DNA of 64,000 bases from a bacterium (lineage in GTDB: Bacteria; Planctomycetota; B15-G4): assembly GCA_030428785.1 (NCBI GenBank), contig JAUIEF010000005.1, forward strand, positions 10,919 through 74,918, given 5' to 3'. The notes beneath the pieces were generated by a model that saw nothing but the letters and a program-made list of their open reading frames with translations, was not told the DNA's origin and did no database searches. Positions 22,774 through 26,808 of the stretch are shown here, piece after piece (the first letter of the stretch is position 1; the number at the start of each line of letters is the position of its first letter). The position numbers and the translations under genes are program-made.

Positions 22774-24321
22774 TCAGAGGTAGGAACTCACAGGACCCAT
22801 GGACCTCCGCACGAGGTCAAACACCTGGAACTCCACCGGCGCTTTCCACAACCGGTTGCGCAACCGCACCCCCGCCGACTTCCGCAGCAGGTGCGAGATG
22901 GGTCCCTTGCCGCCCGCGATGCCGTCGAACCACGGCGCCATCTGCGTGAAGCGCGCCCAGACCTTCTGGACCTCTTCGGGGATGGGGCCCCACCACGAGT
23001 TGAACTTGTAGTCGAAGAAGCGGCCCCACTCCTCGAAGGAGGTCGGCACCGGGTAGTTGTTCACCTCGACGGACGGCTGCCAGAACTGGCTCCCGGGGAT
23101 GGGCCGGTACGGGAAGACCTCGACGGAGCAGGACGGGTACCGCGTCTTCATGTCCGCGGCCTCGTAGATCGTCTCGTACATCGACTCCACGGACTCGCCG
23201 GGGTACCCGATGATGTAGGTGAGGCCGGACTTGATGTCGAGCTCGTGCATCTTGCGCATCGCCTCGTCCGTCTGGCCTTCCTTGATGGCCTTGCGGATGA
23301 GCCGCTGCGTCTCCTCGGTGCTGGCCTCGGCGCCGAACCACATGAGGTGGTTGCCGGACCGCTTCATGAGCTCGAGCGTGTCCCAGTCGTACTGGCAGAT
23401 CTGCTTGATCTCGATCGTGCCGTTCCAGTTGATGTTCAGGCCCTTGTCGAGCAGGCCCTCGCAGAACTCGATCATGCGCTTCTTGGCGACGCCGAAGTTG
23501 GCGTCCTGGAAGCGCAGCACGTCGAAGGGGTCCTTGCGGTGGATCACGGCGAGGCGCTCGACGAGCTCGTCGGCGTCGAGCGCGACCCAGCGACGACCGG
23601 CGATCTCCGGCGAGCAGCAGAACGCGCACGGCTCGGGGCAGCCGAAGCTGCTGAAGTAGCTGAAGCCGCGGTGCGGGCGGTTCGCGAGGTGGTGCGGCGG
23701 CGGCAGCCGGTTGCGCACGCGGTGACCGAACTGCGCGACGCGCTTCTGGAGGTCGTAGTACTTCTGCAGCTCGATGAGGTGGAACGACGGCTCGGGCAGG
23801 TCGTTGAGGTGCGTGACGGCGCGCTTGGGCGTCCAGTGCACGGCGCCGTCCTGCTTGATCACGAGGCCGGCGATGCCGGTGAGGTCCGCGCCGCGCCCGC
23901 CGTCCTTCCAGGCGTCGAGCAGCTCGCCGAAGGTCACCTCGCCCTGGCCGTGGACGACGGCGTCGCAGATCTCGCTGCCGAGGTAGAGCTCCGGGATCGC
24001 CGACGGGAACCAGCCGCCCCACACGATGGGCAGGTCCGGGTACCGCGTGCGCACGGCCTGCGCGACCTGCGCGCCGTCCCACACCTGGTACCCGAGGATG
24101 GCCGAGCTGCCGAAGACCTGCGCGTCGGCGCACGCCTCGAGCACCTGGTCGAGGTAGTCCGGCTCGGTCATCGCGTCGACGACGACGACCTCCCAGCCCT
24201 GCCGCTCCGCCATCGGCGCGATGTGCAGGAGCTCGAGCGGGAGGAGGTCCGCCGACGGCAGGTCCCCGATCTCGGGGTCCACGCGCGACGGCAGGAACAG
24301 GACGACTTTCGGCTTCTTCAC
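22774..24321 (-). CDS. Cobalamin-binding radical SAM protein
   Basis: N-terminal B12-binding domain (PLELLHIA, IVWGGWFPS, VVHGQGE); SFGCPEPCAFC (CxxxCxxC); FQDANF, FGAE, YIIGYPGE. Confidence 0.9.
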   Translation of the reverse strand: MKKPKVVLFLPSRVDPEIGDLPSADLLPLELLHIAPMAERQGWEVVVVDAMTEPDYLDQVLEACADAQVFGSSAILGYQVWDGAQVAQAVRTRYPDLPIVWGGWFPSAIPELYLGSEICDAVVHGQGEVTFGELLDAWKDGGRGADLTGIAGLVIKQDGAVHWTPKRAVTHLNDLPEPSFHLIELQKYYDLQKRVAQFGHRVRNRLPPPHHLANRPHRGFSYFSSFGCPEPCAFCCSPEIAGRRWVALDADELVERLAVIHRKDPFDVLRFQDANFGVAKKRMIEFCEGLLDKGLNINWNGTIEIKQICQYDWDTLELMKRSGNHLMWFGAEASTEETQRLIRKAIKEGQTDEAMRKMHELDIKSGLTYIIGYPGESVESMYETIYEAADMKTRYPSCSVEVFPYRPIPGSQFWQPSVEVNNYPVPTSFEEWGRFFDYKFNSWWGPIPEEVQKVWARFTQMAPWFDGIAGGKGPISHLLRKSAGVRLRNRLWKAPVEFQVFDLVRRSMGPVSSYL

Positions 24322-24367
24322 GATGCGGGTGTGTCCGGGGTGGGCGGGCGGCTCGGGCCCGCGGTCC

Positions 24368-24631
24368 TCAGGAGAGGACGGGTTGCTTGTTGCCGGTGAG
24401 GATCGCGTCGACCTCGCCGTCCTCGGGGAAGCGGCCGGCCTGCAGCTTGGAGAAGACCAGCTCGCCGTTCTTGGCGACCTCGAAGGCCCCCCCGTCGCTG
24501 GGGATCAGCAGCAGGGACTCGATACCGCGCTTGTGCTTCTTGAGCAGCTCCTCCGCCAGACCGACGGCTCGAGGCTCGTAGTTTCAGACGGCGCAGTAGG
24601 TGAGTTCGATCTTCACGTCGCGGGGCTCCAT
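24368..24631 (-). CDS. Rdx/SelW-SelT-SelH family selenoprotein with CxxU motif (TGA at 24586-24584 read as Sec)
   Basis: Manual translation MEPRDVKIELTYCAV-U-NYEPRAVGLAEELL...GGAFEVAKNGELVFSKLQAGRFPEDGEV; homology continues across the TGA; TAGACT -10 box at 24671-24666. Confidence 0.88.
24550..24574 (-). promoter_or_regulatory. Bacterial SECIS-like hairpin downstream of the Sec codon
   Basis: mRNA CCUC-GA-GCCG-(UCGGUC)-UGGC-G-GAGG; G-containing apical loop begins 19 nt after the UGA. Folded by eye. Confidence 0.55.
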
Positions 24632-24771
24632 TCGGGATCGGGACGTCGAGGTGAGGGACCGCTTGAGTCTAGGTCGATCCCCGGAGAGGCGCCAGTCGGG
24701 CCGGGGGCGCGGCGGCGTCCTCCGCCTGCTCATCGGCACCGCGCGGTCCCCGGGTGGACCCGACCTCTCCC

Positions 24772-26808
<2,037 letters not shown>

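Follow-up and report, generated by a model that had tools for sequence, protein, structure and literature searches.

Small selenoproteins of the SelW type, with selenocysteine (Sec) in a CxxU motif, were recognised in bacteria about 20 years ago. They have been reported from Geobacter, Desulfotalea, Alkaliphilus, Desulfotomaculum and Symbiobacterium, with very few or no Cys homologues in Sec-containing organisms (PMC1794560), and a 'SELENOW-like protein, PF10262, CxxU' is also found among bacterial selenoproteins (PMC13188914). The gene described here lies in the window, by which we mean the whole 64 000-nucleotide stretch of DNA that was analysed; it is a further orthologue of this family, and we consider it very probably to be a genuine and intact gene for a small SelW-like selenoprotein of the Rdx family. 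Its predicted product is of the same size (about 75–85 aa) as bacterial SelW-like selenoproteins such as those of Geobacter sulfurreducens, Desulfotalea psychrophila and Symbiobacterium thermophilum (PMC1794560), and the CxxU motif is again found near the N-terminus, the predicted SECIS hairpin again within the ORF just after the UGA, and Cys orthologues again few or absent in Sec-using organisms. There is no difference of kind between them, the window gene being an orthologue from an uncultured, very GC-rich lineage, the closest relatives of which bear the label Planctomycetota, and standing, within its family, beside a gene for a B12-radical SAM protein. The Cys-containing SelW-related proteins of solved structure (2fa8, Agrobacterium Atu0228; 2p0g, Vibrio cholerae; 2obk, Pseudomonas fluorescens; 3dex, Streptomyces SAV_2001) have the same fold, with the redox motif in the same place, but carry CxxC, without recoding, and are only 28–36% identical to the window protein. 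Mammalian selenoprotein W (2npb) and MIEN1 (2ljk) also have the Rdx thioredoxin-like fold, with CxxU or CxxC in the β1–α1 loop, at a weaker similarity (TM 0.64–0.71). Furthermore, in eukaryotes, as in mammalian SelW, the SECIS is located in the 3' UTR and is used by SBP2/eEFSec, whereas that predicted in the window is located in the ORF and would be served by the SelB system. Since SelW-like CxxU proteins and in-ORF SECIS elements are already established, the locus by itself opens no new biological question.

A preliminary description of this DNA, made from the sequence alone, had claimed that YCAV-TGA-NYEPRA continues in frame into GGAFEV...VFSKLQAGRFPEDGEV and that the gene is missing from a mechanical list of ORFs. 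Both claims are borne out, the former by the sequence and by its translation with TGA read as U, on the minus strand and without any shift in coordinates. The frame runs from ATG 24631 (ATG GAG CCC CGC GAC) into GTG 24616, passes through TAC TGC GCC GTC TGA AAC TAC and then remains open until the terminal TGA (Table 1). Translated from ATG 24631 it reads MEPRDVKIELTYCAVUNYEPRAVGLAEELLKKHKRGIESLLLIPSDGGAFEVAKNGELVFSKLQAGRFPEDGEVDAILTGNKQPVLS, with the motif YCAV-U-NYEPR; from GTG 24616 the product has 81 residues. The gene is missed because ORF finders treat TGA as a stop. The segment 3' of the TGA contains no ATG, GTG or TTG start, and the 15 codons on its N-terminal side are merged into a spurious 638-aa ORF (24584–26500, minus strand) that overlaps ligA. 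This ORF is an artefact of GC-rich sequence, an alternative frame through ligA, and by terminating at the Sec codon it hides the N-terminus of the selenoprotein. A protein database search returned no entry for the product encoded in the window, and 11 of the 12 homologues found in a large protein database are fragments of 54–65 aa that begin after the TGA, the pattern left when gene callers cut a selenoprotein short, and one that agrees with the earlier expectation that such programs would truncate or miss the gene. What matters in practice is the annotation: ORF calling from stop to stop does not reveal the gene, and nearly all of its database relatives are without the active site.

Table 1. 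Positions of the features of the SelW-like selenoprotein locus in the window
Feature	Position	Strand	Remarks
SelW-like (Rdx family) selenoprotein gene, very probable	24368..24616	-	81 codons from GTG, Sec at codon 11; stop TGA 24370-24368
Predicted selenocysteine codon, in-frame TGA	24584..24586	-	Second position of CxxU redox motif
Cys8 codon TGC	24593..24595	-	First residue of CxxU; C8 column invariant (44-sequence protein alignment)
GGAG, putative Shine-Dalgarno-like sequence	24626..24629	-	9 nt upstream of GTG 24616
TGGCGC-N17-TAGACT, candidate promoter (-35 / -10 like)	24666..24694	-	Conserved in nearest relatives
Predicted bacterial SECIS upper hairpin	24553..24567	-	Stem CCGUC (24567-24563) / GGCGG (24557-24553), apical loop GGUCU (24562-24558)

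Translation probably starts at GTG 24616 rather than at ATG 24631, because the ATG overlaps the GGAG and the GTG column is conserved across relatives. Indeed, an upstream DNA alignment of nine loci contains a single conserved start column, [AGT]TG, which corresponds to GTG 24616, with GGAG-like purine tracts 6–9 nt 5' of this column in the relatives. The TAGACT box that had been noticed ahead of the gene is present at 24671–24666, with TGGCGC 17 nt upstream, and the pair is conserved in five to six close relatives; in the same alignment TGGCGC-N17-TAGACT is conserved in the window and at loci L101, L021, L024 and L022, and partly at L025 and L027. A sigma-70 consensus scan called no promoter at the TAGACT box, and we regard the pair as a candidate promoter only.

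Assignment of the product to the Rdx/SelW-like family, as originally proposed, agrees with family profiles, solved homologues and the predicted fold. The Pfam Rdx profile (PF10262) matched with an E value of 5.2e-19 and 68.7 bits against a cut-off of 22.6, and NCBIfam TIGR02174 ('SelT/SelW/SelH family') with 58.2 bits against a cut-off of 34.2; the score with the equivalog NF041051 (SelTWH_Campy) was 87.1 bits, just under its cut-off of 88, and on these sequence scores the gene is assigned to the broader SelT/SelW/SelH subfamily only and not to that equivalog. Sequence matches to the bacterial SelW-related structures 2p0g, 2fa8, 3dex, 2obk, 2oka and 2ojl had E values of 1e-9 to 1e-6 and were followed by MIEN1 and mouse SelW. 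The CxxC of the PDB homologues aligns with C8 and U11, the second Cys of 2p0g and 2fa8 falling on the TGA codon, so that the earlier placement of the TGA at the second redox position is upheld. An AlphaFold2 model built with an alignment of 44 read-through orthologues had a pLDDT of 96.7 and, numbered from GTG 24616, the order β1(2–8)–α1(14–31)–β2–β3–β4–α2, with the CxxU (C8-A-V-U11) in the β1–α1 loop. When this model was compared with the PDB using Foldseek, SelW-related proteins filled the first 21 places (TM up to 0.87), headed by 2obk, 2fa8, 3dex and 2p0g (TM 0.82–0.87, rmsd about 1 Å), with MIEN1, mouse SelW and thioredoxins ranking below. The protein is thus predicted to adopt the thioredoxin-like β-α-β-β-β-α fold of SelW. 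Residues C8, G43, S56 and K57 and position 11 are invariant in the 44-sequence alignment.

The TGA itself is conserved far beyond chance. When prokaryotic genomes were scanned, one for each species, 295 confirmed relatives were obtained, and TGA was present at the CxxU position in all of the best 80; the relatives bearing it came from Planctomycetota, Latescibacterota, Chloroflexota, Gemmatimonadota, Bacillota, Fibrobacterota, Desulfobacterota-like and other groups. When the organism's own genome was taken together with its 30 nearest relatives, the Rdx gene was found in 23 of the 31, and each of the 25 Rdx matches held exactly one internal TGA. The sole full-length database entry, P0002, which derives from a 776 bp metagenome scaffold in ENA (L101), has Gly at this position, encoded by a genuine GGA codon and not by TGA. 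At this locus (L101:236-484; a close homologue, 87% identity) the GGA replaces the TGA and the sequence of the SECIS hairpin is retained; the GGA may be a sequencing error, or an isolated variant or recent Sec-to-Gly change.

The preliminary description had also placed a SECIS-like hairpin at 24574–24550, and this claim stands in part. A hairpin is present inside those bounds in a covarying 5-bp register that begins 16 nt after the UGA, with its loop beginning 21 nt after, whereas the longer register of the MFE fold (CCUC..GCCG/UGGC.GAGG, essentially 24574–24550) is without covariation, and the 5-bp helix is preferred to it. Covariation was assessed in an ungapped alignment, anchored at the UGA, of 68 distinct sequences in which columns 20–24 pair with columns 30–34. 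These columns were paired in 82% of cells, as against 74% in shuffles and 16–63% in controls in which the partner strand was slid, and double-sided changes were seen in 41 cells, as against 8.0±3.4 in shuffles, none of 500 shuffles reaching as high a number and the slid controls giving at most 18. Stems such as CCAUC/GAUGG, CUUCC/GGAAG and CGGCC/GGCCG illustrate the exchange, in which the encoded amino acids switch together (Val-to-Ile with Ala-to-Met). Within the hairpin, synonymous sites are frozen at codons 17, 19, 20 and 21: among 15 close relatives Ala17 was GCC in 15 of 15, Gly19 was GGT in 11 of 11 and Leu20 was CTG in 15 of 15, as compared with third-position entropies of 1.3–1.8 bits for the other Gly, Ala and Pro codons, and GGT is an odd choice for Gly in a genome of 74% GC. 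From the covariation and the frozen synonymous sites we take the 5-bp hairpin to be the SECIS, its binding by SelB being putative.

A 48-nt stretch carrying the hairpin had an MFE of -14.7 kcal/mol and a pair probability of 0.87 for the helix; the 81-nt fold around the TGA showed no extra stability over shuffles (z -0.01), folding energy alone being uninformative because the DNA is 74% GC. The proposed comparison with bSECISearch was made against the published criteria of the model, namely a loop of 3–9 nt, G in the first two loop positions, an upper stem of 4–16 bp, and a spacing of 16–37 nt from the UGA with an MFE of at most -7.5 kcal/mol (PMC13188914). The hairpin agrees in all four respects, having a 5-nt loop led by GGU, a 5-bp stem, a spacing of 21 nt and the MFE given above, and it shares with the consensus (PMC13188914, Fig. 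2A) the small apical loop starting G-G-U, the short G+C-rich upper stem, the spacing range and the location within the ORF. An Rfam scan of 24300–24750 gave only matches at the level of chance, and none to this hairpin. In Escherichia coli the loop of the fdhF SECIS is also GGUC(U), with G23 and U24 contacting SelB. In the window the distance between UGA and loop is one codon greater than in fdhF, and no bulged U is evident in the hairpin.

Decoding of UGA as Sec in bacteria depends on a dedicated machinery, which the preliminary description had supposed the organism to possess and had suggested looking for. Indeed, in the organism's own genome assembly (321 contigs, 85% complete) selA, selB, selD and tRNA-Sec were all found, each above its curated cut-off. 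The selD gene (347.9 bits) itself has U, in NCAG-U-AAKIP, and adjoins selA (464 bits); the tRNA-Sec with anticodon TCA (UCA in RNA; 74.5 bits) is located on the same contig as these two, and selB (306.6 bits, or 332.5 with a C-terminal piece) on a contig different from that of selA, selD and selC.

Given the frame, the family, the conserved UGA, the covarying hairpin and this machinery, we infer that Sec is inserted at the UGA. Our working model is that the ribosome would meet the UGA at codon 11, where SelB-GTP carrying Sec-tRNA(Sec) (anticodon UCA) would bind the in-ORF hairpin CCGUC-GGUCU-GGCGG and deliver Sec without termination, after which translation would continue to the true stop, also a TGA but one without a SECIS. 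The SelB-dependent step in this model is taken from established bacterial Sec decoding and from the conservation of the parts. By analogy with the Rdx family, Cys8 and Sec11 would most likely cycle between the reduced thiol/selenol and a selenenylsulfide, and the product is most likely a thiol-dependent oxidoreductase.

Other explanations of the in-frame TGA have to be weighed against this model. It might be a nonsense mutation that has disabled a CxxC Rdx gene, of which only a 10-residue peptide would now be made, and TGA is the commonest stop codon of this genome; but decay of this kind would yield no conserved TGA, open frame or covarying hairpin, and such a pseudogene is very unlikely when the same TGA recurs in all of the best 80 relatives, which span several phyla, and in every related genome with the gene, when the frame 3' of it is open and conserved, with G43, S56 and K57 invariant, and when a covarying hairpin follows. 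An equally small chance attaches to an assembly or sequencing error that has disguised a TGC or TGT codon for Cys in an ordinary CxxC protein. The assembly is fragmented, and the related scaffold with GGA differs at the first base of this very codon, yet TGA is seen in independent assemblies from dozens of studies, and a SECIS hairpin with frozen GGT and GCC sites would be pointless beside a Cys codon. We think it no less improbable that the UGA is read as something other than Sec, either through genome-wide reassignment to Trp or Gly or through near-cognate read-through. The Gly of P0002 might seem to favour such a reading, but, as noted above, it is encoded by GGA and is not a recoded TGA. 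TGA is the stop codon of ligA, of the radical SAM gene and of the selenoprotein gene itself, as well as of 834 (78%) of the genome's 1063 long coding-like ORFs, so that it is a normal stop here and decoding of the UGA must be local and not the result of an altered genetic code; moreover, the full selA/selB/selC/selD set is present and it is at this position that the Rdx family has its redox-active Cys/Sec. Local insertion of Sec thus remains our preferred reading.

A question of a different sort is whether the selenoprotein acts as a free-standing general oxidoreductase or as the dedicated partner of a neighbouring enzyme. Upstream, ligA (with NAD-dependent ligase domains) ends 155 nt before GTG 24616, and downstream a gene with B12-binding and Radical_SAM domains starts 46 nt after the selenoprotein gene, the gap between them being 24367–24322. 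Linkage to ligA was considered and discarded, ligA having been lost upstream in several relatives that retain the selW–radical SAM pair. The pair itself (22774–24631, minus strand) is adjacent and co-oriented, a terminator scan called nothing between its two genes, and of 14 newly fetched genomes from the same taxonomic family 13 have this arrangement too, also where ligA has been replaced or is absent. However, the adjacency is missing in f4 and f5, two sister families within the order, and in all the other phyla that have the gene and, since the linkage is limited to one family, the gene order may be mere inheritance. We therefore regard it as unlikely that the selenoprotein is the dedicated partner of the downstream B12-binding radical SAM enzyme, and give slightly less weight still to the fuller proposal that the two genes form a conserved unit in this Planctomycetota-labelled family, with the SelW-like protein perhaps as its dedicated redox partner. 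If true, a radical SAM partnership would be the first defined physiological role for a bacterial Rdx protein. The general oxidoreductase remains the reading that we favour.

This organism clearly makes use of the Sec trait. Its genome was scanned in a simple way for open coding-like frames in which a similar hairpin comes after a TGA, and the ten top frames match protein families with the TGA at the redox motif: FdhA, a BCP peroxiredoxin, two Redoxin/AhpC proteins, two AhpD-like proteins, a PrdB/GrdB-like protein, an ArsC-like protein, a thioredoxin-like protein and an SsuA-like binding protein. Most of these families (FdhA, Prx, AhpD-like, PrdB-like and ArsC-like) are already known to include selenoproteins. 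The locus also marks the organism as a heavy user of selenium, with the Sec machinery and at least 11 candidate selenoproteins, which is useful ecology for an uncultured lineage. Apart from the SsuA-like protein, the genes of the proteins named above carry the TGA with a GU-loop hairpin at C160:6112, C116:19532, C133:2505, C94:9758, C54:29342, C271:358, C146:1123, C122:15226 and C191:10964, and the selD gene on C60 has one as well, so that the genome looks rich in selenoproteins; several of these hairpins have the identical loop GGUCU.

A separate observation concerns another locus of the same genome, outside the window (L122; C227:5080-5082, plus strand), at which an SsuA/NMT1-like ABC substrate-binding protein has an in-frame TGA in LPVT-U-HLTCPVT. 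The score of its product against the selenoprotein binding protein SaoX was 65 bits, far below the cut-off of 300. The TGA is kept in 10 relatives, and Cys is found at this position in three paralogues or orthologues (LPVTCHLTCPVT); L122 may represent a further family of Sec-containing binding proteins.
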